The notes below the pieces were generated by a model. It saw only the letters and a list, made by a program, of their open reading frames with translations. It was not told the DNA's origin and ran no database searches. A stretch of 64,000 nt of DNA from Paraspadella gotoi (taxonomy: Eukaryota; Animalia; Chaetognatha), in the NCBI GenBank assembly GCA_051294375.1, contig CM119264.1:19599590-19663589 (forward strand), given 5' to 3'. The position numbers and the translations under genes are program-made. Within the stretch, counting starts at the first letter, position 1. Each line of letters begins with the position of its first letter. Positions 11,301 to 39,267 of the stretch are shown here, one piece after another.

Positions 11301-14300
11301 AAATATGGTTTTTATCGTGTGCAATATAATGTGCGCGCATAAAAACGACTAAATGTTTTGAAAACATCCACGACGCCTTGTAGTTGCTTAAATTTTTTAT
11401 TGTATATGAAAGTAAAAAGCCAAAAAAACTTTTGCCACTCATTTTATTATTATATTTCAAATCGTTCAGACAGGGAAGGACGTTAAGTTTTGTCTCGATA
11501 TAGGATTCCTCCCCTGTATTTAAATATCTTCTTCAATCTTTTGGTATTACAATAAAGTACTAAAAATAAAAATTATAATTTCAAATTAGATATCCATCAA
11601 TCAACAGTAAAGGCTATTTTTTCGTAACGCCGGAAGTATTCTCTTTTTTTGTCTGTAAGGTTCAAAAGCCTATAGCCGCCCATAAATCAAAAAATGTTAA
11701 CTTTACAGATAAGTGATCAACCTTAAGACGCTTGCTAGGCATGCGTTTCATATTTGGATAATCAAATCATTATATGAAAATGCATACATGTAATAAAAAA
11801 ACGCGCAAGACATTTTTTTATAAGTTTAAAGGAAAATTAACAAATTTTGCTAATTAAATAATGAACTTTTTCAAATTTTTTTCAGATTGGCAAAGATACA
11901 GAAAAAATATGGTTAAAGGTTAAAAATGCAGTGCTGTCAGATGCTGGAGTCTATACAGTTTCAATTTCAAACGGAGTCGATGTGATGGAATCCACTTGCA
12001 ACATAATTGTTGAACGTATGTTATAAAAAAAATACAAATTTACTGTGCTACTATGTACAATTTTTTTTCTTATGTATATTTTAATGGATTTAAATGATGG
12101 AATTTATTATTTTCTATATGTATGATTAAATTTGAATATAAAGAAAAATTTTGTTTCATTGTAGTGGATTGTAAATTTTTGGAATATTTTTATTGAATAT
12201 TATTGAATATAGTAATAAAATTCGTTTAAATTAAATCCTTTATACTTTATTTATAATTAATTAAGTAGTAGTAATGGTAATGTGAAGAGTATAAAAGCAG
12301 TCTGTGTTTAGCCTTTTAAAAAAAGTAGTTAAAATTTATTTCATGTTTATAGCATGTTTAATAAAAAAATAAAAAAAATAAAAATTATATTGTTATGCAC
12401 TAAATTAGATTTGATGTATTGAAATTTGAGTAAGATTGGCAGTTATTTTTAGTAAAGATAATAAACTTTGAGATACCAGACACTATCATGGTAATTAGAA
12501 ATACAGTTAACTGCCTAAAACTGTTTCAAAGTTCCTTGATTTATTCTTTTTTTTTTTTTTTTTGCATGTTCTGCATGATTCTTCATTTTCACTGCATGAC
12601 GATAACAGTTAATGAAGAGTTCATCACTTTCAACAAAGCTATTGATGAAGAGGTTATAAAAGCAAGAGCCCAACTTAAAATAGATATGGTTAGATTAAGA
12701 ATTGAATTGGATGAACAAGAAAAAAGGGATATTGCTGCTGCCAAACAACGTTATTTGGATGAATTAGCAGCTAAGAAAGAACAAGGTAAACCTAATTTTA
12801 TCATAGATGTAAAGCTCTGAAATAATTAACTTGAATGCAAATTCGCTTGTGATAAATTTAATGAAAATGAATTTGATACGGATCATTGTTGCATTCAATG
12901 TTTATAAAAATAATAGTTTACAGTACCCAGACCTCCAGTATTTTGTTCATTATTCATCATTGTTTTAGCTATTTAAATATAACCCTTGCTTCATGAGTGA
13001 TTAAATTTAAAAAAAAGATTTATATTTTTGTGTGCATAAATTTTGTTGCTGTGTACTCTGTTATGATTTTGTAGAAAAATATTTTTTTCTCTGCAGCCAA
13101 GCAAGAGCTCACCAAAAGAAAGCCTCAACTGACTAAGAAATTACAGGGAGTTGTAAAGGTCGTAGAAGGTTCATCTATAAAGTAAGTCAAAAAACAAATA
13201 AACTTAAAATTTTTGTTCATTTTTATTGTTCTATTAAATTTCATGAAAAAAATTAAATGATTTTAATATTATCTTACTCAATGCTGATTACTTCGTTTAC
13301 TTTTTATAACAAAATCATTAGAAAATTTATTCTATATTAAACATTTTTTATAATTTTTATATAATTAACCATTATGAACTAATACTTTTTCTTTTTTTAA
13401 ATATTACTTGATTAAACATTAGCTAACATTATTTTTTTTAAGGTTGGAAGTGGAACTCCTTAAAAATATGGAAACAACTTGTAATTGGTATAAATCAGGT
13501 GTTAATATAGAACATTCTGATAAATTTCAAATTTGGCATGGGGAAGCACTAGAAGCTGCTGTTGGCAGCGTGCTTCTGATTATGAACATAACTCTTGATG
13601 ATGCTGCAGAGTATACTTTTAGAGCTAAAAATGCAAATGGAGAATGCGCGACATCTGCAACCGTGATTGTTCAACGTGAGTTAAAAAATATTTCCATACT
13701 TGATTCTTAAAAAACATTACAAACTAAAGAAAAAGTTTTGTTTTTAATATTCTAAGAGGTGACGTTATTGTTTCCTTAATTGTTATAATCTGCTTGTTAA
13801 TTTTTAATTATTCTTTTTTGAAAACTTAATAGTTGGTTAAATTGAATTATTTTATTGCCATTTTTTAGCTGAAAATATTTTTACCATTTTTTATTAAAGG
13901 TATTTTGAAATAATTTTATTTTTTTATATAAGAAAATTAAATTTACTGGTATGGCAACAGCCGGGTTGCCTGTGATGCCCATTGGGATGGGGCATCTCAC
14001 TGTTGGCTTTGGGGGCTTCCGACCCTCAGTGACGCCTCCAGTCACTGGCGCGGTTACCCTAGGACGGTCTCGCTTTGCCAACGCAGAGGGAAGTCGTTAG
14101 GACTGTGGATGAAACACTATGCCTGGGATGGCCAAGACATCACTCAGGTTCCTCAAGCCTGAGAGGCGTTTGTCGACATTTCCTCTCTATAAATAAATAT
14201 TAAAAAATTGAAACATAAAGTTGGTCAAAAATTAAAAAATCTATATTTTAAGTTGAAAATCAAAGTTTTGATTTAATTTGTACAACGATTTTATTTTTGT

Positions 14301-17300
14301 ATCTTAGCAGACATGTTTCGGCTCATAAATTCGAGCCTTCATCAGCGTTTTTGACAGTTGTAAATTTGAACAGATTTTGTGAGTTAAAGAAAGGGAGGGA
14401 GAGAGAGAGAGAGTGAAGAAGAAGTTCAAGGTTAAAGTTTCCAACAAAGAATTGAGAAAAGACAGTGGTCAGTGGTGAGGACAGATTTTAGACAAGGCCA
14501 GTTTGAATAAGTTGTGAAAAAGAAGTGAAAATTTGATGAGAGAGAGAGAGAGAGAGAGAGATAGAAAGGGGGAGAGAGAGAGAGAGAGGAAATATATACA
14601 ATTACATTTGGCAATGTACAACAGGGATAAAGATAATGGAAACTTGAAATGTTCTGACTAATAACAATTTGAAAATAAGAAATTGAAGATGAAAAAGAAT
14701 ATTGAAATTTGATATTTTTAGATTAGAGGGATAGATAAGTAAAGATTGTAGTGAAATATAAGGATTGAGAAAGAGCTCAAAATGAGCTGGGCCGCCCCCG
14801 GTCTCGTGAAGGAAAGGCATTGCTGACTGTGCCGGGTCATTGGCGTGTCATAGGTTGGGAAGATAATAGGATTGATCTCGTGTTAGCTGGCTCAGGTATT
14901 GTTCCCTGAGGAAACAAACCCAAGGCCACCCTAATATCCCTCTGGCCTGATACGCCTGCCGACGGCCCTCTTCTCACCTGACGGTGAGGTGGGCGGGTGT
15001 CCACTCTTGCCATTTTGTTGACAGGGATGGTGGAGTCCTCTTCATCCTCCTGCAGCCGTCGCTTGGGACGACGCCCAGCCCTCAGAGAAAGGGGCTGAGT
15101 TGCTGTTGGAGATTCGGAGGTGTCAGGTGCCCATCGGTTGACCGAAGGTCTCCGCCTGGCTCGTTGAGTAGGGACAGGGGAGTCATTGTGCGGTTGTGGT
15201 GGTGTGGGGTGTTCCACCACTGCTTTGATAAGCGAATCATAGTTTGGAGGGAGATCGAATCATCCTCCATCGCGGTTCAAAGAGGGTTCGAGGGCCTTGA
15301 TGTAAATGGCCTCTCTAATACCCCTTGAGAACCAGTTAGGGTCATGGGACAGCACGAGACAGTCTTCCTCTCTGAATCGATGACCACTGAGCGTTGCGTG
15401 CTCTGCTATAGCGGACATGATATGCCCACGCGCGTCTCTGTAGGGTCTTACGTGCTGCTGGAAACGGTCTGAGAGAGACTTGCCTGTCTCGCCCACATAT
15501 GCTGCTGCACAGGGTTGGTTGCCCGCCCCTGCACAGGCCGCCCAATAGACGGCTCCTGATGTTTTCGGTCTGGGGATTTTGTCTTTCGGTTTCACCATTT
15601 GCTCACGTAGGGAGCCGCGGGCCGTCACTGAGATGGAGATCCCCTGCTTTGCTAGCACCCGCACCAATAACTCAGTGATCCCCTGGTGGTAGGGGAGGGA
15701 CAAGTGGCCCACGTTCCTGGGTCGCTTCTGCTTATCTTCCAATTGCGCTGTGGTGGGCGCGGTAGATGTTTCAGCAGCAAGCTCCCCACCATCCTCCTGG
15801 GGGGCAGAGGATGGGACAGCGTCAGCGGTTACTTGGGTAGAAAGGATTATACCATGAAGTTGAAAATCAAATCTTTGTATATTAAATATTTTTTTTATTT
15901 CTAAACTACCTAATGAAATAATTTTTTAAAATAAGTTATTTTTTCTTTTATCAACTTTTGACGAGGAAGTCAAATCTGCGATCAAAATTAAAAAAGTCCA
16001 TATTAAAATGTTTGGATTTTTGAAGGATAGTACTATATATAAATATAATGTAAAAATTAAAAAATAAAAAAAATTTTTTTTTATAAATTTATGTTTAATG
16101 GTGGTACGCTGGTAAAAATTGACAAATAGAATTTTCATACGTGACTTTCACGAGGCACTACTAAGCAGTGATTTTTTAAAAGTAACTACTAAGTTAAAAC
16201 TACTTAGTACTCAAAAAGAATATCAGAGCAGAAAAAAATTAAGGTATTTTTAACCTCTTGTGTTTATGGAGCTGGAGCTCCGGAATGACTAGACCGACTT
16301 TCTTTAAAGTTACACATATGAATTCCTCTTTTAAAAGTCTTTATTTCCCATTCACAATTTTTTTAGAAAACATAAATATAAAACCCATAAATTAAGGCTA
16401 AAAAGTATCTTCGGTTTTTGGCAGATCTTCAAAAATGTTTTTGTAGTAACTCAAATGATGAATGTTTTTGACAACTTGTCTTTCGGGAGCTATAGCTCTT
16501 GAATGCCTGAACCGATTTTCTTTTAACTTACACATATGGATTTCCCATTTCAAAATCTACATTTATCATTTATAAATTTTTATAATATGTGAGTAAAACA
16601 AGGCGCAACCTAAGTTTGATGGGTGGCTTCTTTTTTTTGCACAGGTCTGTATAATGGAGTTTCAGTATTCTATATAATAAAGAAATATCTTTTAATTTTG
16701 GATCTTTCTTCAAGTTACAGCGATACAAATTATGCAAATTGTATATTCATATTTTTATTGTATTTCTGATTGACCACGTCATGATGTTAAAATAACTTTT
16801 TTTAAAAATATTTTTATATACAATATTTTTTTAAAGAATTGGGGACGTCTATTATCTCTGGCGGAATAACTGATGTTAAAGATGAGGAATCTAAAAGTGA
16901 CCTTGCAACTAAATATTTCTCAGATGGAAGACAAATAAGTGGTCAAAGAGAAGCAAACCTAAATTTTACTGAGGATTCGATTCCCCCTAGAAAAAATCGA
17001 ATTGCATTTTTTGAATCATCACTTAAAGATTTAACAGTTGCTGAAAATTCCAGTGTTTCGTTGTCCACAACTATATTTGAAAAATGGATAAATCATGAAA
17101 ACTCTCCTAAACACTTTATTTGGTCACACAATGATAGTGTTTTAGTAGATGGAACAAAAAGATGTTCCATTGAGGAATCTGAAGGTGCCATTACCTTTTA
17201 CAAATCTAAGGATGAGAATTGCTTGTCCTATTATTATCCGGATTCTGGAAAAGTTATTTTTATGATAACAAATATGAAAGATAAACTATATGGAGGCTAC

Positions 17301-20300
17301 AAAGTAGTAGGTTTAAATTCACAAGGGGATTTTGATGAAGCTATAGGAAACATCAACAAGAAGAGTGAGTTTACTTTCATGTTACAATTGCCTGGATCTT
17401 CTTTGATTAATTGAGATTGAATTTTGGTTATGAAGTCTTTACTTAAATCTGTTGTTTTCAAACCTAACAAAGCTACAGTGAATGCATGAAAAAGTAAAAA
17501 GTATTTTAAACTTATAAATATTTTTAATGAAGCTATAAATAAATGCATGAAATCATAGGCCCTGTTAAATTTATTAATATTTAACTCTATATTTATAACT
17601 AATATAAAAAAGAATTAAAGACACTGAATGCTTGTGTCAACTCATTATTAAGGTAGTTAGAGATTTCAAGTTTGGGTTTGAGATAAAATTTTCTAAAAAA
17701 TTCTTTTTTAGTTACTCCGCATATATACAATCTCTCATCAAAGTCTATTAAAATTTTTGGAGAACTTGGTTGTACATACTAAGAAATTTTTTTTTCATTG
17801 AAATGAAATAAAGTTAGTGGATTTATATTCATATTTATTATCTTTTATTTAGATAAGCAAATGGTAGGGAAGTGGAATTAAGTTTAAATGTAAAAGATCC
17901 ATCATCATTTTTTGTTTTGCCTGCAATATTTTGTCTTTATTGTAGCGGTAGTATTTCATGCCCCGTTACTCGTCTGAGATTCAGCAGAACCTATGGCGCC
18001 GAATTTAGGGTTAATAAATAATTTATATTAGTTATTCATAATAATGATGATAATGATAATTATTCATCAACATTTTAAAGGATTATAGTACTAACTTTTA
18101 TTTAATTTTCTGAACTTTGTCAGAATATGTTCTTAAAAATAAATTAAATGTATATGATAATAAATACCACAAAGCTTCAGTTTTACAACCCAATAAACTA
18201 ATTAAAAAAGTTACATTAAAAATCGCTTAAGCAGTAGAAGAAAAAAAATAATAACTTGATGTTAAAAAAGTATTCAATTTTGCAATAATATGTGGATAAG
18301 GAGCTAAGTGGGCTGGTCTTTAGATACTCTCTGTATCTTCCGTGCCCCCTGAGCAGCAATGGAATGGGTCCGGGCTTGGAACCACACTTGAGGGTTTTCT
18401 ATGCCCGCAAAGCGGTTTACGGCCGTTTTCATGCTTCCCGCAGGGTAAGTACTATTGGGGATCAATACCGGTACCCAATGGTCATGTGCTGATTGTATGC
18501 TTACAATTTTAATGTCTATACATCTATCATTATTTACAGAGCATAAGCTTTAATTTGAGACCTCTTCCAACTTTCTACGATTTTTTGTTAATTAATTATA
18601 AGTAAAAATCATAATTTAAAAAAAAAAATTTTAATCAATCAGTTTCTTTCAAACAGATTATTTCTTAAAAATAAAAGTACAAATATGTTCTAAAAATGCA
18701 GTTCTACTTATTAGGCGTTAAAATAATTTAATATAAAATTATTATAAAAGATTACCAATACAGATAATTAATTTTTTTTTTAAAAATGTGTGATATTTAA
18801 TTAAAACTTAATCTCAAATAAACTAACAGATAAATATTAGCTGAGCACTTTAATTCAAAATCATCCAGCTTTTAAAAGTAATTATATATTTTATTATTTA
18901 TCAAAAGAAAATTTATTTATAAAATTATATTATAATAATAGCTCACTCAATATTTGATATATATTATTAATAGACAAATGAGTAAAAATATTAACAAATA
19001 TAATGCTTTAACTTTTAGTACTTAATTAAAGTATATATTAATATTTTTCAAAATATTTTTTTAATTTTTAAAATTTTTTATATTAAAATGATTATTAATT
19101 AAAAAAAACTTCTTTTGAAGCCTAATAAGTAGAATTGCATTTTAAAAACATATTTGTATCTTTATTTTTAAGAACTAATCTGTTCAAAGGTACTAATTGA
19201 TTAATTTTTTTGAAAGAAAAAAAAAAAATTTTTACTTATATTTCAATAACGCAAAGTAATAAAAAGTTGGGAGAGGTTTCAAATTAAAGCTTTTGTTTTG
19301 TAGATATTGATAGACATATAGAAATTCAAATTGTAAGCATATTCACTAAACTACTTGAAAATTTTTAGAAAAAAATTTCAAAAACTTTAATTAGCATTTA
19401 AACAAAATCCTGCCTTTATCGAATTTTACTGACCTACCACATTAAGTGTCTCATGGGTATTCTTTAAGATTTTATAGGTTTCAGAGATGGCACTTTTTTG
19501 TTTCTTTCACATCCTCTCTGCCCTACCGTGTAATAATTTAGAAACATTATGCAAAACAAATAATTTTTTTATTCCTTGCAAGTTGAAAGTTATAATCGTA
19601 AAAAGTTCACAGTGTGTCAAAATTTTGATAAAACATGAATTTTAATCATAATATAACCCGCCCCTAAAAAACATTCACCAAAGGAAAACGTGAAGAGATT
19701 TTAACATTTTGAAAAGAGATACTTAAAGATAAGACATACTTATTTTTTATGTATAAATATCATTTATTTTAGTTTACTTTTACTTTAACAGGAAGAGGTA
19801 AAAGATAGCTTTGAAAATGATCTCCCGGCTCGATAGCCTAATGTTTTTGAATGAAAAATTTATAGCTTACTTTCTGGACAAAAGATAGCTTTGAAACTGA
19901 TCTCTCGGCTCAGTTAGCCTAATGTTTTTGAATAAAAAATTTGTATCCCATTTTCTGGACAATTTATAAAAAAGACTTTCAAAAATAACAATAATGTTTA
20001 TATTGTCTTAAAGCCCTTTAAAAACTGTACACTGAAGAGACAGTAATTATTGTTATGAGTTAGTGATAGAACCGTTCAATATAAGCAGTCTCTGAGCTTC
20101 GGATCAGGCTGTAACACCATGTTACAGGCGGGTTAAGCGTCCCGTCCCTCTAAACTGCTAGGCGGCCACCGGGCTAGAACCCCTGACCTTTGGGTTGGGA
20201 AGCGAATGACTTGCCTCCGGCACCAATGGTCGCTGATGAATGGTTGGTGGATTTTAGTCCACCATAATACTATGATACATTTGTTGATTCTGTAGTATAA

Positions 20301-23300
20301 AAAAAATTATTTTTTTAGGCCAAGTAAAAGTTATAAGATATAGATTTTAACTACCATACTTTTAAGGATAGTGGCTAAGTATATTTCTGTTAAGAAATTA
20401 TAATCAATATTCCTGAATAAATTTTTAACGGGCTTTCTTATGATACCCATATTAGCACTAATTAGTGAGATTATGATTGTTTAACAGAGCAAATTTATAC
20501 ATAAAAATGAGTATGTCTTGTCTTTATATATCTTTTTTCAAAATGTTAAAATCTACGAGTTTTCATATTGTGATTTTTTTTTATAGCGGCGGGTTTCAAA
20601 TGGTCACGCGGTACTCTTTGTCACTTGGATCGTTAAAAAAACATTTAATATTTATTGATATTTATTAATATTTATTGATACTTAAATATTACAATTTTCT
20701 GCATGAAAGAATGCCAATTTTTTTTTTTAATATTTATTTGTAGTAATTGAAAGAAATTTGAAAAGCTTAATAGTAAAAAAATATATTTGTTAAAAATATT
20801 TCTAAAAGTAGAGGGTATATAATTAAAATGTAACAATAATTTTAGTAAAACGTTGAATAAATATGAATCAAATTTAATATTTTATTGTGATTTAATTTTG
20901 TTTAATATTTTAGGTTCTGAAACAGTTGTCGATGAAACTCCTGCGACATTGTTACCACAAGTCTTTGGAAAAATTCAGCCTGCTACTGCAAATGAAAAAA
21001 TTCATGATGAAATAAGGTGAGATTAAATTTATTATTCAACTTGCCAATCTTTCTCTTCAAAGAAGAAATTACCATTATCTAGGATTCTTTTAATCAATAT
21101 ATTTTTTTTCCTTTCAGTATCATTTTTTATTTTTTTATTATCTATAGTTTAAACAAAGATAATAAACATAAACAAATAAATCAAAGATTTATACAATTAA
21201 AAAAATTCAGAAACTTGTTCCGTTTTATACACATAAGAACAATTTTTAATTGTTTACGTTTTAATTAATTAATTTTATTTAATTAACTGTTTTTTTCTCT
21301 CTATTTTATTGATTTCGATTACTCAGAATAGTCTAAGTTTGTTGATGATTGTTTTACGGAATCAACCTTGTTGTATTCGAATAAAATCGCATATACACTC
21401 CGTTAATATTTTTTAGTCGGATCTGCTATCAGCAGATCCCGACTCTATAATTCTCTTTGTCGGTCCGTCGGTCCGCCCCCTCAATCTTATAGGGCATTCA
21501 CTTATATCATGTCAGAATATCGAATTATGATAAATTATGCAAAAAAAAAAAGATGTCTGTCCATTCGTCCGTCCCACCTTAGCAAAAAACTCCAATTACT
21601 CGTGATTGGATGGATGGATTAGAATGAAATTTTGTGTGTGGGTGATTGAGTTGAATAAAAAGTTTTGATGGAATTGTGCGAGTGGAAATGAGTTTAAATG
21701 GAAAAAAACCAAAAAAAAACTATTTCACTATTTAAATGCCAATTACTCATAAGTGGACAAGTCGATTGACTATAAATTTTGTATGTGGGTAGAAAAGTGT
21801 GTGATTAAGCTGGAAATCAAGTTTCGATGGAATTGTCTGAGTGGAAATGAGTTTAAATGGAAAAAACTAAAAACCTTTTTCACTAATTGATTATGGTTCT
21901 TTTTCTTTTTATAATAAATGTAAATGCAAGATATATTAATTAATCAAATAATTAATTAATTAATAAATAATTATTTAATCTGTCAATTAATCAATCAATT
22001 ATTCAATCAATCAATTTATTTAGTTATCTATTAATTAATTATTTAATCAATTAATCAATCAAGCAAGTCAATCTTTATCGGCATTATCGTCATCGTCGCC
22101 ATCATCGTCGTCGTTGCTTTTGTCGTGGTCAGTGACGAAAAGACCTAAAAACAAACATTTCGGATTAAATTAATTAATTTAAATTATTATTTTAGTTTAT
22201 ATAGTTTGTATTAATTAATTAATTACCGCTAATGATCGTGGGTAGATCCGACATTGTTTGCTCAAACTTGTTTTAATAAATGCCGTTTTATTTACCATTT
22301 TCTTTTTTACTATTTTTTATCCTACAGTCTCGAAGCGTATTTTCAAGGCGTGCCTGCCCCTAGCACTAATTGGAGTTTTGGCGGAAAACAAATAAAACCT
22401 AACTCTAAATATGACGTTGTTACTGGAAAAACCAACAGCAAACTGATTATTAAAGAACCAGTTCCAGAGGATGATGGCGAATATTTGTTCACTACTACTA
22501 CTGAATTTGGAACATCTGAGGCAACTGGGAGACTCACAGTCATACGTAAGTTTTGAATAGCCCGTAATGATTAACATTTTAATTGTACGGAATGTTTTTT
22601 CTGCTGCATATAAAAGAATACTAAAAAGTATATAATTGGTAAAAACTATAACTTATCGTATAAGCACCAATTTCTTCGGTATTTTAATTTTTTTTAAATT
22701 CTATACTAAAAAAAACTGACTAAATTTAAAATACCATTTTTTTCTTTTTCTTTTGTTTATTGTCAACATGAAATTGATACCTATATATATAATATCCAGG
22801 CCCCAACTGCAATGTTTTTTTAAATAAAAAACTTTGTATTATTTTCTCTCTTTTCGTTGCTAAGTGAATATTAAGAAAGGTTTATTATTGTGCCAATACA
22901 ACGAAATAAAATTCGTTGTATTGGCACAATAATAAACCTTTCTTAATAAAAAACTTTTAAAAGTTTGTAAACGATAGCATTTTTTTACAGGCAGACTTCT
23001 GATTATCACTTTATACTAATATATTCGCCAGTAGAAGGTACTATCAAACTTTTTCAAAGGTTTTGTAATAATTTTATATCATGTTTTTAGGTAAGGCTGA
23101 ATTCTTTTTATGCTGTAAAAAAGCATATTAAAACGCGAAGTTAATGGGTTAAAACAAATAGCTTATTTATTAAATGAATGGATAATTTTTATATTGGTTG
23201 TACCAATTTCATATATTTGTTAGCTGCGCCACCGCCTCCTGCTCCTCCCCCGGCAAAAGATAAAACAAAAAGACCAAAGATTAAACGTGGAACTGTTCCA

Positions 23301-26300
23301 ACTATGGAGGTATTGCTGCTTTTTCTCTTATTTTTTTCTTTTTTGATCTTGTGGTATATGCTTTAACTTTTACAATAGATGCATGTCTTTGTAAAAAAAT
23401 CCACAATCTCCTTAGAATATGCACGTTTGTTTGTTAGAAAGAGAAAGTTATAATTTATTAAAACAATGACAGTTATTATTTATTGATAGAAATACCATTT
23501 AACACAGTACCTGTGGATAAGGCGCTAAGTGGGCTGAAGATGACTATCCGTAACTTCTATAACCCCCTTTAGTAGCCATGAAACGGGTCCTGGGCTTGGA
23601 ACCAGGCTTGAGGGGTTGCCACGCCCCCAAGGCGGCTTACGGCCGTCCTCACGCTTCCCACAGGGTAGGTACCGGGTTGGGATTGAACCCGGTACCTAGT
23701 GGTCATGAGCTGATGGCTTTACTCAATGAGCCACCGGGTCAGGACTGAAGGTGTCATGCTTATAGGCAATGCCCGACTACAGAAGAGAGTAAAGAGAAGG
23801 AGTAAAGTGAACTTTAAACCACTTTGGGCTGGGACGTTGCGACTTCTCAAGCCTAGCTCCAAGCCCAGGCCCCATTCCATTGGAGCTATGGATAGTAAAG
23901 CGTTTAAAGATAACAACATATAAAATGCTAATAAAATGGTACAACAACTTTAGGGTATTATAGAATTAAATTATTAAAATTTTAAAAAAATCATATTTAG
24001 CTTTTAAATATGAAATTAAACTCCTTTAAGTTTATTTTGTAATGTTTATTATCAAATACTATTTATTTTTGGAAGCTAATTATTTATAATTATAAATAAT
24101 TTTAAGTAAAAAATAAGCTAAAGTTAGAAAATAATAATTTGAAAATTTTGAAATCAGATTTAAATGACCTACAAAAAGTTAATATGAAAAAGTATATTCA
24201 ATTTTTTTAAAAATATTTCATTAAATTTGCTAAAAACGTTAAAATATATTTTTTATCTGATTTTTTATAATTTAGCCAAAAATATAGTTTTTAAAAATTT
24301 TGACTGACTTAATGATATAATTTTTTAAAAAGATTTATATTTTTATAATCAACTTTTTGCAAAAAATTCAAATCCGATTTAAAAAATTTGAAATTGTTAT
24401 TTATTTTTTTACTGATTTTTTTACTAGTATATAATAAAACTTAAAAATATATTTTTTAAAATATTTTTGTAGGTTTTTATTTATATATTTTGTATGCTAA
24501 TTATGAGTTCTAAAATTTTTTATTTGTTTTAATTATACCCTTTCGTGTTAAAAATCGTTATTTGCGACAAGAAAGATGAAAGTTTTAAAAAATGATCATC
24601 GCCGTCAAATTCTTCGGATTTTATTACAGTAAAATAATTTTGAACGAAATCTAATATTCCCCGATCTAATACTTAAGGTAGTCGTCTTTTCATACAATTT
24701 AAACTTTCTTTGAAATATTATACCACTTCATTGATAGGGAAGCCAGATACTCTGGGAGTGAATAAACGAGACTGTGAGAGAGTCTTGATTGAAAGCTGGC
24801 CTTAAACCACCAAAGCCTGTCCAAAGTCAGGGAAAGATAGCTTATTTATTAAATGAATGGATAATTTTTATATTGGTTGTACCAATTTCATCTAATATTT
24901 GGTTATCTTTAAACGCACTAATGGATCTTTAGCCAACATTAGCGCCAGCCGACCATATGAACATTAAATAAATCCGTTATAGGTATTAATTAAAACTTAG
25001 TACTCATAAACTTAGGGCTTTACTCAATGGACGATAGATTACAACTGAAAGGACAAAGTTTATTGGCAGAGTAAACCTGCCCACAGCGCAGACAAGGAGA
25101 ACGATAGAAACTGATTCAAAAATAAAAATATTGTAGTACTAGTACCCATACTTTTAGACCATCTTTTATTTGGAAACTTACCATAAAGTCTCGAAAAACG
25201 TATATATATATACATATCGTAAATCGATTCCATCTTCGATGGTATTACACAAAATTATAAATTTGATATTTAAAAATTCAGAAATTTATCTTAGATTATT
25301 ATTAAAGTTCGGGTAACCCGCAACCATTAAAAAGCAAAATTTTAAAGTTAGGAGAAAAACAATTTGATTTGTTTTGGCAACGAATTGTATTTAAGGCATT
25401 AAGCAAACATGTTTCGACTCTGTAGTTTAGAGTCTTCATCAGTGTTTTTCTCCTAATCAATTGTTTTTCTCCTAATTACTAAAACAACGAAAGTCGAAAG
25501 TCTTTACACAATTTTAAAGTTAAAATTTAAAATATTTATATATTTTTTTGTGTCAGTTTCGGTAGCTCTCGTTGAATTTTATTTGAATTCTTTTTCTATT
25601 TATATAATTTAAACTTTCTTACATGTCATAATTGTATTGATAATAATCTTGCATGAATATAGTATATGCTGGAGTGGTCCTCTTTTGAAGAAGAAGATGA
25701 ACCAGAACCGGTGGAGAAAATAGTTTATAGATCACCGCATGATGATTTCGAACCGGTGGTAGATGAAGAGCCCTCATTCCCAAAACCCCCGAAGGAACGT
25801 AAATTACAAAAGGTATTTTTTGGACTGAATTCTGTCATTACATGCTGTATCCGCTATCTCTCATCACTTTCCAGCATAAAAGTTAAGTATTCCTTTTTAA
25901 ATATTTTATAGCCAAAAAGTCTCACCACTGAAACTTCAACCGATGAAAAGGATCCAGATTCAAAAGCACGTCGAGAACAATATCCTGTCATCATGACTCG
26001 AATGCAAGACCAAACTGTAAAGGAAGGCGAGCCGGTTCGATTTTTCGTGGAATTTGTAGCTTGGCCTCTCCCGAAGGTAGGAAGAAAATTTAAAAGAAAT
26101 TAAAACCTATGGCTGCGCCAATACATGGGAAACGCTTTCAAGGAATTAAATTGATCTGCTACAACTGTGCAAAGGGTTCTTTTTCTGTCAAAATTATTCC
26201 ACGCATCTGAAAAAATTTACGCTTGGAAGATAAAGGATTAAATAATAATATGAAGTTTTCGGAAAAAAAGTAGATTTTTAGGGATAAACTAGTTTGAACA

Positions 26301-29045: not shown

Positions 29046-29134
<89 letters not shown>

Positions 29135-32100
29135 GTCTCTGTCTCACAAAAAAATTGACCTTTTATTCCCTTTTTGTCTCTCTTCCTTTCTTGACTATGA
29201 CTCAGTCACCGAATTGCTGCCCCATGTCAAGAAAAAAATATTGAGAAAAATATTTTTTATTTTCTTTGTTAGGTCTTGTCGGACACTCCTGTCAAAGTGA
29301 AGTGGTTTCGCAACAAGAAGCAATTAACCGAAGAGGGTGACAAATATCGATTTGACGAGGAAGGCGATTCTCAATCCCTTCTGATCACTGACGCAGTTCT
29401 TCGCGACACTGGAATGTATGAGGCAATTGCCGAAAACTCAAGAGGAATTACCAAAATAGTCGGAAAACTTACCGTCAAATGTAAGACAGTGGAAACATTC
29501 TATTCTCTGCAGACAAGCCGAAAAAAGAAGTTTTGAGTAAACTCTGTCGCGTCTGTAGGCGACACTTTACTCACTCAGCTAAAGAATGACTATTATTCCT
29601 TTTTAGTTGGCGCGATTTTGTTTGCTCAAACTTCTTTGTGAAAAAATAATTGATCATCATAAGTAATTTTAAAAAAAATTGTTTTTCACTTCAGCGAAAT
29701 TAAAAAAAGTAGCACAAAAAAAGCCAGAATTTCTCTTCAAGCCTCGAGCTATCAATAAAGGAAGCAACAAGAGGACGATGATATTTGAAGTTATCACGGA
29801 TGGAAACCCCGAACCTTTGTACAATTGGTATATGAACAATGAAGAGGTAAGACTCAAGTTTAGTTAAAGGGTCTTTTTAATCCAATTTTAAATGGCTCAA
29901 AAAACAGTCCGGATTCACAAAGTTGACCTGGCAATTTCAAAAAAGGGATCGCTTTAAACATTTATATCTCTTTAATATATTTTAATAAAAGGACATTTTG
30001 AAATTTCACTTCGTTTCCTTGAAAACGAATTGTTTTTAAACATTTACCCTAAAGGAATCTTGACTGTAAAGAGACAGTAATTATTGTTATGTGTTAGTAA
30101 CAGAACCGTTCAATATAAGCAGTCCCTGAGCTTCGGATCAGGCTGTAACACCATGTTACAAGCAGGTTAAGCGCCCCGTCCCTCTTAACTGCTAGGCGAC
30201 CACCGGGCTAGAACCCGGGACCTTTGGGTTGGGAGGAAAACGATTTGCTTCCGGCACCAATGGCCGCTGATGAACGGTTGGTGGCTTTTAGTCCACCATA
30301 ACTGTAACAGTTAATTAGGCTACAACTTTTTTTTATTTTTTATCGAGACAGACCGGGCGAAGCCAATTATACCGCGCTTTTTTCTCAATACAAAATCCCA
30401 AATTTATATCCGAAATTTATTTTAGAAAAAGTGAAGAATAACTTCCTTGACCTAGATTTCGTGGCCGTTGCGGGACAACGAGTAAACAATGTTGAGGAAC
30501 ATGACCTAATAACGCGTTTCGATGACAACGGAAAAGTTATGTGTATAAAAAAAATCAACATGACCCAATTTCACACGGCGGAAACGTTACGTATATAAAA
30601 AAAAAATCAAATTGACCTAGATCACGCCGCCGTTGCAAGGCAACAGATAACCGTTATAAATAAGAGTGACCTAATAATGCGTCTCGTTGGCGCGAAATCT
30701 CTGTCTCTCTCTCTATCTCTTTTTTTTTTTTAAAGTTTTTATTCACTTTTTTTCGCTTTTCTTGTGTGAATCAGCAGGGCACGAACACGAGTTCTTTGGA
30801 TTGGGAGGAGCTCGCGCTAACTCCGGGGCTACCGGACGAGTAAAGGGGCTGTTCAGTAGGGTGGAGTGATGAAAAGATTGAGCAATTGAACATTATTTTT
30901 TTGCTGCTTATGGATATATAATTAACAAATTTTAAATCCTTTTAATTTTTTTTTAGCATAACAGTATAATAAATTCAATTATTTATGTAATCCTTATAAA
31001 ATCATTAAATTTTAAGATAATTTTTTATTATTTTTAAAAGCAGATTTGGATTTGCCGTAAAACACTAAAAAACTTATAAAATATGTTATATGATACTTTA
31101 ATTTTTGGATTGCAAAAAATGACTTAAATGTTCTAACATATATAAGTTTCTATTATAAAGAATAAAAAAGTCATAATTTTTTCCCCCATTTTAAAAGCTG
31201 AAGATGACAGAATTTTTGATAACATGTTTTATATTTTTGATTTAACTTTTTATGAATAATCTGAATTTTTATTAAAATTATTTTTAAAATTTACTATTTT
31301 ATATGAATATTACTACAAATATAATATATTTTACTATTCTGTTCCTGAGATAATATGAAAAAAATATTTTTGTACTAATTAATCATTCATTCGTCATTCA
31401 TCTTGTTCGATCATTCAAATAAATATTTTGTTTTTGAGTGCTCCACTCTACTGTTCAGTAGGGTGAATTGAAAGTTTGGAATCAAAATTTAGCAATTATA
31501 TCTTGAAAACTATTATATTAGTGAATACTAATCTATAGTTATTTTTCTTTTTTTATAAATATAGTAGCCCAGTCAGCTTATTTTGTATGTAGTACTACCC
31601 TTATATAATGTCAAAATTTTAAAATGTTTTTCTTAAATTCTGAGAACAGATTCAGATTCTTTGTTAAAAGTTGTTAAAAGAAAATATAAATCTTTTTCAA
31701 AAATTATGTCATTAAGTAGGTTAAAATTATAAAAAATTATATTTTTAAGCTCAAAATTAAAAATCGGCATCTTAAATATAGTTTTTTAGATTTTTGACCA
31801 ACTTCATGAAAGAATTTTTAAAAAAGAATTATACTTTCATTATATTAACTTTTTGCAAAAAATTAAAATCCAATCTTAGAGGCAATTTGTCTAACATTTC
31901 ACAAATTATTTGACTCTGAAGAAGGCTTGAAATCAAAGCCGAAACATGTATGTTTCTCTGAAATAAAAATCGTTGTCAACATGAAACCAAATTGCCTCTA
32001 ATACCAAAAACAACAATTTAAAAATTTGTATTTTAAAATTTTAGCTAGTATCTACTTATTACTATATATAAATGTAGCTTACCCATTAATGTATGAAATT

Positions 32101-35100
32101 AAAAAATAAATTTACTAAAGTATTTTTAATGCTTTTTATTTTTACGTTTTATATGCTACATGTGATAATCCTTTCTTTTTCGTTGTTATTTGGTATTTAG
32201 AGGAAACAAAGTGTTTTTGAATTTGTTACAACGATTTATTTTTAATAAAGGGACATGTTTCGACTCTTTGGGTTTGAGTCTTCATCAGCATTTGAAATTC
32301 ACAAACTTTTCAGTTGTTTTCATTGACTTTGGAGAGAAAGAAGGAGAGAGAGATTGAGAGAGAGAGCTTCTAACAAAGAATTGAGTAAAGGACAGTGGTC
32401 AGATGTAAGGACAGGTGAAAGTGAGGGAAGGGAAGGAGAGTAAGTAAATGTGAAATTTGGTGAAAAATGAGAGAGAGAAAGAGAGAGAGAGATAAAAATT
32501 AATACATTTGGTAATGTACAACAGTGAAAAAAAAAATAAACTAAATAAATAACAAAGAATAATAAATAAATGTTTGTAAAAAGTTGGAGATTTGGAATAA
32601 TGAAAAATTGAAGAATTGAAATTTGAAATGGAAGAATAAGTTATGAGGGATAGATAAGATAATGGTAAGGGAAAAATAAGGTGAGAAAGAGCTCAAAATG
32701 AGCTGGCCCCCCCCTAAATTTTAATTTTTTACAATTTTATCATTTTCACATCACTCTACTGTTCAGCTTCTCTCTCTCTCTATTTTAATTATATGTCGCT
32801 CTCTCTCTCTCTTTTTTATCGGATCTGCTTTCAGCAGATCCCGACACTAATAATTCACTTTGTCGGTCCGTTGGTCCGCCCCCTCAATTCTTGTCGGGCA
32901 TTCACTTATATCATGTCAGTACATCGAATTATGAGAAATTATGCAAAAAAAAAACGATGTCGTCCGTCCATCCGTCCGTGCCCACCTTAGCAAAAAACAC
33001 CAATTACTTGATTGGATGGATGGATTGGAATGAAATTTTGTGTGTGGGTAGGGAAGTGTGTGATTGAGCTGGATATGAAGTTTCGATGGAATCGTCCGAG
33101 TGAAAATGAGTTTAAATGGAAAAAACAAAAAAATATATTTCACTATTTGAACACCAATTACTCATGAATGATGACTTGAAAATTTTGTATTTGTTAAAAA
33201 GTGTGTGATTAAGCTGGAAATCAAGTTTCAATGGAATCGTTTTTGTGTAAATGAGTTTAAATGGAAAAAACAAAGAACCTGTTTCACTATTTGATTAATA
33301 TTATGCTTCTTTTTCTTTTTATTTTAAATGTAAATGCAAGATATATTAATTAATCAAATAATTAATCAGTTAATTAATCAATTAGACAATTAATTAATCA
33401 ATTATTAATTAATCTGTCATTTAATCAATCAAAACATACATTTCGGATCAAGTTAATTAATTTATTGACTAATTAATTAATTAACCTGAATTAATTAATT
33501 ATTTAAGTACCGATAATGATCGAGGGCAGATCCGACATTGCTTGCTCAAACTTGTTTAATATGAAATTCTAATTTTTTTTTACGTTTTCATATTGTTTAT
33601 ACCAATTTCATTTAGTTGGCTGTTAAAAAAATTAAGGGAACTCGTACCTTTTATATTTATTCTATCCATGCTCTTGATTTTGAATCATTTTGTAAGATTT
33701 TTCCAACATCTTTTCTCAAGCTTCAACCTTCGGGAAGATTCAAGATTAGGACCTTTGGTAACCGCAGTCAACTAATCATATCGAAGATGAAATCAAGTGA
33801 TTCGGGACACTTCATTGTTAAAGCTTCAAATTTTATTGGAGCTAGCGCCAGCGAATTTTATTTATCCGTTCCAACTGAAGAAGCAGAAGCCGAGGAGGCT
33901 GAAGGTAGATTATGAATTATATGTTGCATATAGGAATCTACCCAGACTTATTTCATTTTTTTTTAATTTTTAGCGGAAGTCGCTGAAGCAGCTCTAACAG
34001 GCCCTGTTGTGGTGACCAATCTTAGAACAGCAGGCATGATCGTACCTGGGCGTGATTGTCGATTTGAGTGTGGGGTTGAACCAAATCCTCACAATGTTGT
34101 CCAATGGCTTTATAATGATAAAATGATGGAACCGTCTGACAGAATCAAGGTTTGAAAAACAAACTTGTGACAAAAACTTCATAAATATATATATTATATA
34201 CATGTACTATAAAATTAAGAAAATAATTTTTGTAAAGCTATACCCTGTCAAGTGGTATAATAAAATATTTTAATACATGATTATCTCGGTTTTAACAGAT
34301 GGATTTGAAAGAAGATGGTATAACTTACAGAATGATCATTTCGGAAATAAAGTCTACAGATTCTGGAGAATATACTTGCTTCATTACTAATGATGGTGGA
34401 AAGGCTGAATCTTCGCTGAAAATTGATGTTAGTTAAAATTCCTTTACTTTTAGTCTTGGCACTGTCATATTATAAAATTTCGGCTCCCTACTTAAGATCA
34501 TCTTTAGAGGCTTACGCTTTTGAGGTGTTTTATTCATATCAAATTATGATACATATGCATACAAACATATACATTAAGAGCGAAATGACAACAAATAATA
34601 AGCAATTTAGGGAGTAATGCTATTTTTTAACTATATACCTTAAAAACTAATTCTTCGTGTTGAGAAAATTGTCAATAAATCCCGTTTCCCTTTTGTGGAT
34701 GACGGTGTAAATGTCAGGGTACCCAAATGATTCCTTAAGTGTTCTAATACTTTGCGATCTGTTCAACCCAAAAATTTTACTTATACGATCATTTAAAGCT
34801 ACATTTAGTTTGCTAATTTCTTTGTATAAAAACTGTTTCACTTTGCATCCATATGTCAGCAGCGACAAGTAATTCATTGGGTGTTTTCAAAACATTAATA
34901 ATAAAATTAGAGGATATATAAAATTATATTATATCAGGCAGCGTCAATCATGTTTTGAATTGAGTGTGAGAGACAAGGACAAGGTCATCGGCATAGAATA
35001 TACAATATATAATTTAAAACTAAATTTATCAAATTATTTTAAGAGATCTTTTTTATATTCCATATGCTAAATTTTAATTTTATAAATTTTTATTCGTTGG

Positions 35101-38100
35101 ACATTGGGTAATTTAACAACTTTTTTCAGGTACAACTAAAGAAAATTGGAAAACGTGAATTGGAGTTTGAAACTGACCAAGGACCTGTGCTTATTACGCA
35201 GTTAAAACAACAAGCTATTAGAGAAGGAGACCCTGTAACATTTTCAGTACAATTTTCCGCCGCTCCTTCTCCTGATGTTACTTGGTATAGAGAAGGTCGA
35301 AAGATAGAAGCATCGAATGATTTTCAAGTAAGAACAATAAATAGTTTTGTTTGAGAATATTTTTGTAATAAAACAAAACTAATTATGAATATATGAAGTG
35401 TTTTAGAAAATAACGACAAATACTGGTTAATTAATTATATAGAAATAATAAAAAAATTGGCAACAGAATCTAAAAATCATATTATATTCATTCTATTATC
35501 CAAATAAACTGTACACTTAGTAATTACGATTTAATTTTATGGTTTGAAAATGGCAAAATATTTTTACTATATATTAAATAAAATTTTTTTTAACGGAGAG
35601 AGGGATGTTAGTGTTGTCTTCTGGAAATATAAGCAAGTGGAAAGTTCGTCACCAAGTTGAGGCATGACGCCTGATGTTTAGTTGGCAGAAAGTGCATCGC
35701 CAGTTTAAGGCATGTCGCCTGAAAGTGTTGATGTTGCTGAAGTCGGGCTCACCAATGAAGAGACAGTGATAATTGTTATGTGTTAATGACAGAACCGTTC
35801 AATATAAGCAGTCCCTGAGCTTCTGATCAGGCAGTAACACTGTGTTACAGGCGGGTTAAGCGCCCCGTCCCTCTTAAGTGCAAGGCGACCACCGGGCTAG
35901 AACCCGGGACCTTTGGGTTGGGAGGCAAATGACTTGCCTCCGGCACCAATGGCCGCTGATGAACGGTTAGCGGATTTTAGTCCACCAAATTACGATACAA
36001 GGTTAAAAATATTTTCTGTCCAAAGTTTCTAATTAGATATTAAACATCGTTCTTGTTGGGAAGTCATTTATTGAAATATCAAAATATGTTAATGAAATAT
36101 GTTTATTAAAATATCAAAATAAGTTATGCATTATTCATTAATCGAATATTAAAATGCATTATAACGTCGCATTTATTTTTCTACATTTGTTTTCTACTAT
36201 GTAAAAAATATAAAATGAACCATTATTAACCAACAACTTCTTTAATATTGATAAGAAATCATGGTCACTGACTATCCGCCAATCAATGAACAGTTATCGT
36301 TTTTATGATTTCGGAATGGCAGGGATCACTTGTGATGCCCAGGGTGCGGGGCGAGTGATACCGTCTCGCTTTGGCTTAGTCGGAGGCCGCTGGGATTTAA
36401 CCTGGAACGCGTTGTTTGGATGATGCGTTAAGCCTTGGCGACTTAATTCTTCCCCTTTATTGTATAGAATAAAAATGATTGTATAAATGTTATTTACTTT
36501 ATAGTATTTTTTGGTAATTTTACTTGCGAGTATCACTTTTCTTAGATTTTTCGATTTAATTTAATGGGTAATATTTTTTTTAAAAAGATTACCACAACGG
36601 CAACTTCATCCACACTTTTTATTACGGAATGTTTCATGCATGATTCTGGCTTACTTACTTGCAAAGTTGATAATAAATATGGATCTTGTTCAACAAAGGC
36701 TATGTTAGACGTCAAAGTTGAGAGAGAACCAGAAAATCCGCCAAAATGGATATCCCGTCCAAGGTGATCAAAAAAAAATATTTTTAAGAAGTTGCATGTA
36801 GTTAACACTTGTGTTTAAAGAAAAACAATCTACACAAAACGAATTTTGAAAATACAGTGTGACCCAATCGTACTGTAAGTTAACTTTTAACTTTTCGAGA
36901 CTACTGTGTCAAAGATAAGTTCTTACAATTTATGATACTATATTTTGAATTTAATTTCTAGAAAATTTTCCTTGCAAAACATTGCATTGAAATGAGTCTT
37001 AGTTTTCCACTTTTTTTAACTTTTAGAATAGTTTTTATGTTTTTAAATTAATTTTGTTTAAAAATTTATATATTGAAATATTTTAAAACATATAAATTAA
37101 GCGGTAATCTGCTAATCAGATGATAAATCACGATAATTCTTTCAATTTGTGATTCTAACTGATCATAACAGATCGTACCATACCAAACCTGTAGCTGCGC
37201 CAATACATGTAAATCGCTTGCAACTCGCATCATTTTTCAACTCTCATCATTTTTTATTTTTGCATCATTTTTTCAATTTGCATCATTTTTCAACTTGCAT
37301 CATTTTTTAACTTGCATTTTTTTTTAACTTGCATCATTTTTTAACTTGCATCATTTTTCAACTTGCATCATTTTTTAAAATTTGCATCATTTTTAAAATT
37401 TGCTTCATTTTTTTAACTTGCATAATTTTTTTAAGTTTATCATTTTTCAACTTGCATCATTTAACTCGCAATCAACCAATCAATCATTTTATCTGAGAGA
37501 GAAAGAGAAACTTAAAACAACTTCAAGTGAATGTTACTTTTTTTTATATTTCCGCTGGCAAGATTCCATCGAAACTTTATATCTTGCTAAATCACACACT
37601 TTCCTACCCACACACAAAATTTACTTTCAAACTATCCATCCAATTAGAATTAATTCGAGTTATCATGGGTTAAAATTAGTAAAAAGATTGAAGTAAATGT
37701 GACTTATGTTTTAAGCTCATTTCCACTCGCACGATTCCATCGAAACTTTATATCCAGCTCAATCACACACTTTCTTACGCACACACAAAATTTCATTCAA
37801 ATCCGACTATCCAATCACGACTAATTGGAGTTTTATTGATAAGGGGGGATGGACAGACGGACGGACGGACGGACATCATTTTTTTGGCATACTTTATCAT
37901 AATTTGATGTTCTGACATGACAGTGAGTGCCCGACAAGATTTAGGGGGGGACCGACGGACCGACAAAGTGGATTATAGAGTCGGGATCTGCTGAAAAGCA
38001 GAGCCGACTAAAAATATATTATTTTTAAAAAAATTAATATGCTAAAGAAAAACATCGATTTGGGAAACAGTGCTAATTTTATTTAGACCATGCATTCAAA

Positions 38101-39267
38101 CCATTTAGCTGGTTCATTATTCAAGGCCAGAGAAAAAAAAAATCTCTGGCCTTGAATAATGAACCAGCTAAATGGTTTGAATGCATGGTCTAAATAAAAT
38201 TAGCACTGTTTCCCAAATCGATGTTTTTCTTTATCAAACTACTCGGTGCATGAGATGACACTTAACAATAAATTAATATGCTATTATGAAAGCTATCACT
38301 GTCCTGCATCGAAGGAAACCATTTAAAAAAATATTTATTTGATCTTGTAAATTATGTTTGAATATTTATAAATCATAATTCATTTTGGCATTTTCTTTTA
38401 AAAAAGTATTGAAAGAAATTTTAGATACCTTCAATTTTTTAAATTAAAGTATCCTATAAAATGGTCGGATTTATCATATTAGATTAAAATTTTATCATCT
38501 GCTCTAGGAGCAGTAATCTTTTAATCTTTTATTAACGGAGCGTACCATTGGGAAACACGGTATTAGATACCCAGATTAGCTTTCCTTAACACTCATCATT
38601 TATTACATTACCAGTAATGAGGAAATAGTGCCAGTGGGCAAACCTGCGCGGTTTACCGCCCAAATTCATGCTTTCCCCCGGGCTGTTGTTACTTGGTATT
38701 TTAATGGAGAATTGATTGAAGTCACCAACCCTCACTATAAACAGTTTAATGAAGGAACTTATTATACGCTACTTTTACTTGATACGACGGAAGCCGATAC
38801 TGGAACGTATTCTCTTAAAGCTGAAAATAGAAATGGAACTCTAGAATCTCAACATAAGCTCATCTGCAAGGTAAAGTAATTATGTTTAAATTTTGTATTT
38901 TTTTTGGTCAAAATTTATTTTAGGTTAAAACGGGTAAAAACTTATTATAGGTATTAAAATATGCATATAGCTTTTGTACAAATAGAAAGAAATCGGTAAA
39001 ACTGATTATGATATCGACTTTAGAACATTTTCATCCCTTCTTACCTGCAACTGTCTGTCCATTTTTGTGAGTCGCTTTCTGCTTCAAATTCTATTATCCC
39101 AATTATTTTGAGAATATTTTAATACTAAGATTTTTTTATTATTTTATTTTAAAATAAATATCTATAGTAAATGTGGCAGTTTTATATTGTATTTACAATT
39201 TTATAACTTCAGCTAAGTTTTTAATTGAACATAAAAGCGTAAAATATAATTGTAAAACATTTTTTTT

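Follow-up and report, generated by a model that had tools for sequence, protein, structure and literature searches.

What can a self-cleaving ribozyme do with a helix that is too short to close upon itself? The question is raised by repeats in a 64,000-nt stretch of the genome of Paraspadella gotoi (Chaetognatha; GCA_051294375.1, contig CM119264.1, 19,599,590-19,663,589 of the forward strand), which we call the window and whose positions serve as coordinates throughout. The window is AT-rich (30.5% GC) and carries a large plus-strand gene with immunoglobulin I-set repeats that is titin-like by its best matches. Twister ribozyme motifs lie in introns of this gene, and an initial annotation of 14054..35865 described their P1 helix as reduced to a self-complementary segment in every family. 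It suggested that two units swap strands to form a common P1, such that only multimeric or rolling-circle transcripts cleave and single intronic copies are nearly inactive. We find the observation partly confirmed and the interpretation partly supported: the palindrome is present in three of four families, and on balance we favour a strand-swapped dimer that would cut better than the monomer, the partners being RNAs of a short interspersed nuclear element (SINE) that meet in trans.

With regard to identity, a strict descriptor for type-P5 twisters, which demands a perfect T1 pseudoknot, matches the window four times, against a mean of 0.01 and a maximum of 1 in 100 block shuffles. By their anatomy the repeats are twisters. 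Their strands follow the type-P5 order (P5, P2, GA, T1', P1 segment, UAA, P2, GC, P3, P4, L4, P5), with the conserved GA (general base) and the U^AA cleavage triplet in that permuted order, and with an L4 of the form UnnnAAGC closed by P4. There are four families, for which we use the names T1 (three copies, about 90% alike), T2 (two copies and a fragment), T3 (one) and T4 (two, both damaged), not to be confused with the pseudoknots. The T1 pseudoknot has three Watson-Crick pairs with other letters in each family (CCG/CGG, UCC/GGA and CGG/CCG) and is paired in four copies and broken in T1c, T2a and T4, while the T2 pseudoknot is GC/GC in families T1-T3 and, in the two T4 copies, has covaried on both sides to AC/GT. 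T1-T3 also have a P3 hairpin, and P2 is short and imperfect, with 2-3 pairs and a mismatch or bulge. For such folds self-cleavage is predicted at U^A.

None of the window copies matches the Rfam twister models (RF02684 / RF03160) at the gathering score. Below the cut-off of 37.6 bits the best Twister-P5 scores are 21.5 (T4b) and 16.8 bits (T2b), with another twister match at 15.2 bits, and for T1b there is no Rfam twister match even below the cut-off. In the alignment of T2b the P1 appears as three pairs around a loop of zero bases. Because P1 is reported to be dispensable, the missing intramolecular P1 hairpin marks a variant of the ribozyme, and since the motifs escape the Rfam cut-offs such twisters are probably under-counted. 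Two sets of candidates were rejected: a twister-like motif at 38595-38671, which is inside an exon and has no L4, and about 50 rows from a relaxed descriptor, mostly AT-rich chance matches or re-registers of T1, in place of which the strict descriptor was used.

The P1 segment lies between GA-NNN and TAA, and its letters are as first described for three families, all on the minus strand. In family T1 it is GGCGCT, self-complementary with G-U ends, in T1b (30170..30175) and T1c (35864-35859), and GACGCT, which breaks the palindrome, in T1a (20141-20136). Both T2 copies have CGGCCG (T2a, 18425-18420; T2b, 23645-23640) and the single T3 copy has TCCTAGGG (14064-14057). With G-U allowed the segment is palindromic in 2/3, 2/2 and 1/1 copies of T1, T2 and T3. 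In the case of T4 the description does not hold. The AGGCCY given for it has been pieced together from two copies, both damaged. AGGCCC is read in one of them alone, at 6642-6647, beyond the annotated range, where the segment in register is the 5-mer GGCCC; the other, which lies within that range (about 24797), has TGGCCT, with the breakpoint of a 40-nt deletion falling at this spot; and AGGCCT is in neither.

Among the k-mers of the elements, 78/1621 6-mers and 24/1605 8-mers are fully self-complementary with G-U allowed, which gives a joint chance of 3.5e-5 for the three families; this and the following joint chances assume that the families are independent, and T2 and T4, with a GGCC centre in common, may be related. 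Given an outer pair able to form a hairpin, the joint chance of three palindromes is 1.5e-3. All three families have a Watson-Crick innermost pair (joint chance about 0.01), and permutations of the same letters are still palindromic in 24/60, 8/20 and 192/1680 cases (joint about 0.02). These innermost pairs are impossible within one strand. The best intramolecular closure of P1 is computed as 1-2 bp at +2.7 to +5.6 kcal/mol, in agreement with the earlier statement that the segment is too short for a stable intramolecular P1, and homoduplexes of the segments are computed at -8.3, -10.7 and -11.0 kcal/mol. For duplexes of the bare segments the dissociation constant is estimated at about 1.4 uM (T1) and 20-30 nM (T2, T3).

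Five collection scans provided 38 microbial or viral loci for comparison (7, 7, 2, 11 and 11), and one further viral pattern gave 0 loci. The P2/P4 filter removes 32 of them; two near-duplicates have only 2/3 P2 pairs and an unstructured 10-nt segment; and the four that pass with full P2 and P4 were taken as controls. In all four of these type-P5 controls P1 is a hairpin with an unpaired loop, at -7.9 to -20.9 kcal/mol. What look like short P1 segments in L010 and L011 are mis-registers inside long hairpins and were rejected, and no relatives of T1-T4 were found among the 38 loci. As a separate observation, loci L002, L010, L011 and L031, on viral and metagenome contigs, are canonical type-P5 twisters with long P1 hairpins, and a purine-rich stretch and an ATG lie closely downstream of the twister in the first three.

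We propose that the palindromes of two RNAs would pair as one shared P1 of 6-8 bp, each active site then consisting of the 5' half of one RNA (P5, P2, GA, T1') and the 3' half of the other (UAA, P3, P4, L4). Efficient cutting would probably be limited to such dimers, so that a lone T1 transcript would survive uncut and be copied at full length. Partners would meet in trans if there is much SINE RNA, or in cis on a transcript with two copies, with tandem arrays not involved. Since the cut would divide the promoter head from the tail, it could hold the element in check in a concentration-dependent way. P1 is described as the end of the coaxial stack P1-T1-P2-T2 (PMC6154101), which makes a head-to-head joining of two cores plausible. 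In a calculation that enforces the twister secondary structure and ignores pseudoknots, the energy of the swapped dimer minus that of two closed monomers is -19.5 kcal/mol for T1b and T1c, -18.9 for T2b and -15.4 for T3, and only -6.1 for the non-palindromic T1a.

Family T1, the one followed genome-wide, shows how such an element spreads. The region is present in nine runs of one organism, and contigs of four public runs (X1, X3, X5 and X9) were aligned to 30030-30320 at 80% likeness (12,654, 9,340, 2,518 and 885 records); runs X10-X22, with a word share of at most 0.05 of the stretch, were left out. No run recorded as RNA carries more than 0.05 of the stretch's words, X9 being RNA by guess only. 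In X1 the depth sums to about 0.7-5.7 million within T1 and to 160-330 on its flanks, which is not a copy number, and from it we infer thousands of T1 copies in the genome. T1 is bounded at constant positions, 30069 and 30300/30301, neither of them at the cleavage site, and its flanks are mixed and AT-rich, with an agreement of 0.40-0.47. Contigs with the 5' end and with the 3' end are equally frequent in the four runs (181/182, 174/169, 109/116 and 37/49). The fixed ends, mixed flanks and equal end counts indicate that T1 is dispersed and spreads as uncut full-length RNA. There is no head-to-tail T1 joint among the best 15 of 61 joints, whose depths fit single or few copies, no pile starting at the T1 cleavage site among the 24 of 796 loose-end rows listed, and no tandem unit of these repeats within the window.

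The full-length copy T1b (30069..30300, minus strand), as delimited by loose-end piles in the four runs, alignment and flanks, has a leader hairpin, a tRNA-like head, the type-P5 twister and a tail of about 50 nt. The twister, a strict descriptor match at 30119..30193, comprises P5, P2, GA, T1' CGG, the P1 segment, P3, P4 and L4 UCCGAAGC, with the cleavage site U^A at 30169/30168. T1 as a whole, of about 232 bp, is short, non-coding, dispersed and high in copy number, with defined ends, and directly upstream of its twister is a tRNA-like unit of 73-75 nt with a 7-bp acceptor-like stem and a B-box-like T loop (30195..30267 in T1b). ARAGORN finds the heads of all three copies at relaxed thresholds only: those of T1b and T1c (35956-35884) are 2 of 4 matches at -ps90, and that of T1a (about 20234-20160) appears at -ps80, which gives 39 matches. 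There is no call for the head at the default threshold and no Rfam tRNA match. A further -ps90 call at 23583-23674 overlaps ribozyme hairpins of T2b and was treated as chance. A direct repeat of 6-7 bp flanks T1b and none is found at T1a or T1c (1/3 copies), and no A-rich or microsatellite tail was seen on T1. The other two elements, also on the minus strand, are T1a (20030..20266) and T1c (35758..35987), the latter with one T1 pair broken in L4. To judge by its anatomy, T1 is likely a tRNA-headed SINE whose ribozyme comes after the head and before the tail. In Kojima 2018 (PMC5786205) 5' truncation is described as the result of a ribozyme placed in this way, and for a full-length, high-copy T1 with a conserved core a damping mechanism is thus needed.

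At positions 30165-30177 no alternative letter reaches 4% in any of the four runs. GGCGCT, the UAA and their neighbours are thus the population consensus of T1, which bears out a self-complementary P1 for this family genome-wide, and the GACGCT of T1a is a private change carried by less than 4% of the population. The core variants listed are two, both CpG transitions in the T1 strands of the core (30134, 13% in X1; 30178, 4%), and these would be compensatory, if linked.

The support for a strand swap is therefore indirect, consisting of palindromes with different letters, a fixed palindrome in T1, a predicted gain of 15-20 kcal/mol, hairpins in 4/4 controls and the full-length spread of T1. 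Several results weigh on the other side. T4 as read in register is not palindromic and lends no support. The CpGs at 30197, 30204 and 30275 are equally free of variants at 4% or above, and the conservation of P1 is not exceptional. A monomer can still make the 1-2-bp closure, and non-twister folds of the monomer are more stable than the closed twister fold by 8-15 kcal/mol; with such competing folds cleavage could be damped without any role for a dimer. Relative to these competing folds the palindromic dimers come to -1.5 to +5.5 kcal/mol per strand. Unconstrained co-folding pairs the whole palindrome between strands in 2/6 domains only, and the dimer gain beats permuted controls only for T2a (1/20 as low; 10/20 to 60/60 for the others). 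In the CHiTA survey of natural twisters imperfections in P1 are described as having no effect on cleavage (PMC11662667), an open-ended P1 is treated as dispensable in the twisters tested there and in PMC6154101, and Schistosoma two-strand T-variants with an altered P1 are reported to cleave (PMC8501958). No Naiad partner element, of which more below, was seen within the window.

The orientation of the repeats also weighs against a need for dimers. The 4 strict matches, and likewise each of the 6 copies whose core is whole, lie antisense to the host gene (1/64, one-sided), and damage is found in all three copies that run in its sense. This is a weak hint that copies in sense can be cut, either on their own or together with SINE RNA in trans. 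It also follows that the host pre-mRNA never carries an intact twister in the window. The argument that single intronic copies are kept silent is void for that reason, and whether they are nearly inactive becomes moot.

A first alternative is that the monomer cleaves by itself, with P1 dispensable, the segment a relic of a 1-2-bp hairpin and its inner symmetry either incidental or that of a compact loop. T1 would then owe its full-length spread to misfolding, to proteins that cover the RNA or to its quick capture by reverse transcriptase. We regard this as a real but rather unlikely alternative. It gains from the tolerance of tested twisters to changes in P1, from the GC-rich letters that make palindromes frequent among the permutations of T1 and T2, from the competing monomer folds and from the antisense bias. 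However the survey in PMC11662667 is centred on type-P1 permutes with an open-ended P1, and the P1-poor twisters described there and in PMC8501958 have open ends or two strands and not a closed linker of 6 nt. The Watson-Crick innermost pairs of three families, the palindromic centre of a Naiad motif discussed below and the real P1 hairpins of the microbial controls are also not what this alternative leads one to expect.

A second alternative, that the ribozymes have lost all or nearly all activity and are relics that travel with a retroelement 3' end, with the palindrome serving RNA pairing in reverse transcription or protein binding, seems to us improbable. It would account for the consensus P2 of T1, which has only two Watson-Crick pairs and a C-A mismatch, for the irregular P2 of T2, for the scores below Rfam cut-offs in every copy and for the lack of a copy pile at the cleavage site among the rows listed. 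Against it, the families retain the catalytic G, the UAA, L4 and both pseudoknots, with covarying letters from family to family, the two listed population variants of the T1 core are both CpG transitions in T1 strands, and imperfections in P2 are described as tolerated in tested twisters (PMC11662667). The least probable alternative, by a small step, is that the units behave like retrozymes, cleaving in tandem or rolling-circle multimers alone and moving by way of circular RNA. There are precedents for this in non-LTR (long terminal repeat) retrozymes and in Schistosoma SINE-like repeats, and T2-T4 arrays could lie elsewhere in the genome, but the ends and flanks of T1, its best 15 of 61 joints and the lack of a tandem unit in the window speak against it, and the earlier claim that cleavage is confined to multimers finds no support.

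Where might the ribozyme have come from? The Naiad-1_Movir consensus (PMC8557442 supplement) has, as read by eye, a type-P5 twister-like motif that lies about 200 nt short of the 3' end and shows a 10-bp P5, a 4-bp P4 and a GA-GUG that pairs with the L4 U-CAC-AAGC. Its P1 segment, UUGGGUACCCG, has 10 self-complementary bases and a palindromic centre, while P2 and T2 are irregular and the 11-nt segment can also fold as a small hairpin. The motif was found by its L4 word, and there was thus no bias for P1. It was the one twister-like motif among the matches listed in a word search of the supplement, whose text lines are broken at 70 letters and of which one of 59 parts was inspected closely. The twisters of T1-T4 are 50-80 nt from the 3' end of the element, a similar placement. 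By this analogy a Penelope-like origin of ribozyme and tail is plausible, and animal retrozymes have been argued to derive from Penelope-like terminal repeats (bioRxiv 10.64898/2026.07.22.740005), with an RTE origin of the ribozyme as a possible alternative. More tentatively than for the dimer itself, ribozyme and tail could have been taken from the 3' pseudo-LTR of a Naiad-type element, in which tandem copies would give the partner in cis.

The window also has recognisable Penelope-like sequence. Four minimal type-I hammerheads, at 14302-14345 (-), 25398-25442 (-), 31916-31958 (+) and 32244-32288 (-), have a stem II of 5-6 bp and a palindromic CATG stem III, the known Penelope type, and are missed at the Rfam gathering score. 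The first is within a Penelope-like fragment at 14270-15925 (-), in which a 221-aa open frame is followed by a terminal repeat with the hammerhead; a like repeat lies near 32200-32700. The frame has no Pfam match, is 37% like P0009 and ends in what we take to be a GIY-YIG-like stretch. The neighbouring T3 was ruled out as a part of this fragment, as the matching terminal repeat near 32200-32700 has no T3 beside it.

Of the other repeat copies, T2b (23512..23745, minus strand) is a strict descriptor match with T1 pseudoknot UCC/GGA, U^A at 23639/23638 and, by eye, A- and B-box-like motifs in its head. T2a (18291..18493, minus) aligns to it at 76% identity and has its T1' strand mutated to AAA. 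The fragment T2c (23815..23885, plus), inverted relative to T2b, is a degenerate 3' half of a T2-like twister; its homology begins at the TAA cleavage triplet and a weak degenerate direct repeat lies on both sides, a hint that it could be an inserted 3' cleavage product, from a single and degenerate case. T3 (13945..14172, minus, ends approximate) has T1 pseudoknot CGG/CCG, a 6-bp P5 and U^A at 14056/14055, and is the only copy in the window. The T4 copies, both on the plus strand and recognised by alignment or by the Twister-P5 model, are T4a (6570..6735), with the damaged twister, and T4b (24765..24895), in which the 40-nt deletion removes the 5' half of the twister. A GC-rich insert at 36280-36450 (-) has a B-box-like motif and short words in common with T3 before GA and in the tail; it has no twister core and BLAST gave no link to T3.

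With regard to the surroundings, exon-like stretches upstream probably belong to the titin-like host gene. At 44400-59000 (+) the titin-like region has a repeat of about 102 aa in three-unit super-repeats of 308 aa, with conserved W-E...W-x-P-x-G motifs; an 817-aa stretch of it gave no match in a Pfam search, and frameshifts and N gaps there suggest assembly error. A near-perfect intronic inverted repeat at 38035-38241 has 99-nt arms and a 9-nt spacer, with microRNA-model matches below cut-off. An unclassified large repeat family occurs in both orientations at 21400-22270, 26280-27990, 32800-33550, 37090-38000 and other places, and has internal tandem units of 18 bp and longer and ATTA-rich tracts.

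Dimer-dependent cleavage is known for hammerheads; we found no report of a dimer-dependent twister or of a twister-bearing tRNA SINE in the open-access literature. If the strand-swapped dimer is right, two unrelated ribozyme folds have converged on one palindrome trick in animal retroelements, and it becomes clear why an element can live with a ribozyme downstream of its SINE promoter, the conflict raised by the account in Kojima 2018 (PMC5786205). It would also bear on why Naiad elements, reported as being without canonical hammerheads (PMC8557442), are so, and would provide a natural two-strand, concentration-gated ribozyme scaffold. A bolder version, which we consider doubtful, is that these are the first obligate-dimer twisters, in tRNA-headed SINEs that have captured the 3' end of twister-bearing Naiad/Penelope-like elements and are copied by them, with the shared palindromic P1 as a concentration sensor through which the element would destroy its RNA, and perhaps host transcripts that carry a sense copy, as the RNA becomes more abundant.

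Among known systems, type-P5 twisters (RF02684) share with the repeats the strand order, GA, UAA, L4 UnnnAAGC, both pseudoknots, P4 and the closing P5, the P2 of the repeats being an imperfect helix of 2-3 pairs. The repeats differ in having a P1 palindrome of 6-8 nt with no room for a loop, where the model P1 has about 20 positions, in the P3 hairpin of T1-T3 and in scoring below the gathering cut-off. The Naiad-1_Movir motif resembles T1-T4 in its type-P5 order, its position near the 3' end and its palindromic P1 centre, a likeness that comes from motif reading and not from sequence alignment, and it differs in its irregular P2 and T2 and its 11-nt segment. Twister T-variants of Perere-3/RTE (PMC8501958) likewise have a degenerate P1 in an animal retroelement, but are described as lying at the element 5' end with P1 drawn partly from the insertion site, whereas the twisters of T1-T4 are internal and of type P5, with a fixed P1.

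In contrast to non-LTR retrozymes, T1 has no tandem head-to-tail arrays among the joints listed. The hammerhead SINE-like repeats of Schistosoma (PMC6765202) are like T1, with its probable tRNA head, in being of RNA polymerase III type with an internal ribozyme at a place where a cut splits off the promoter; they are said to need tandem copies, whereas T1 carries a twister and is dispersed and full-length. A further parallel is with the minimal type-I hammerheads of Penelope elements, which have a palindromic stem III and, with those of newt and retrozymes, provide the precedent for dimer-type cleavage (PMC6765202, PMC7761336). As in these, the helix beside the cleavage site has been cut down to a palindrome in T1-T3, but in another class of ribozyme, in an element that in the case of T1 is not tandem, and with a proposed dimer dependence for which the partner RNA would be met in trans.

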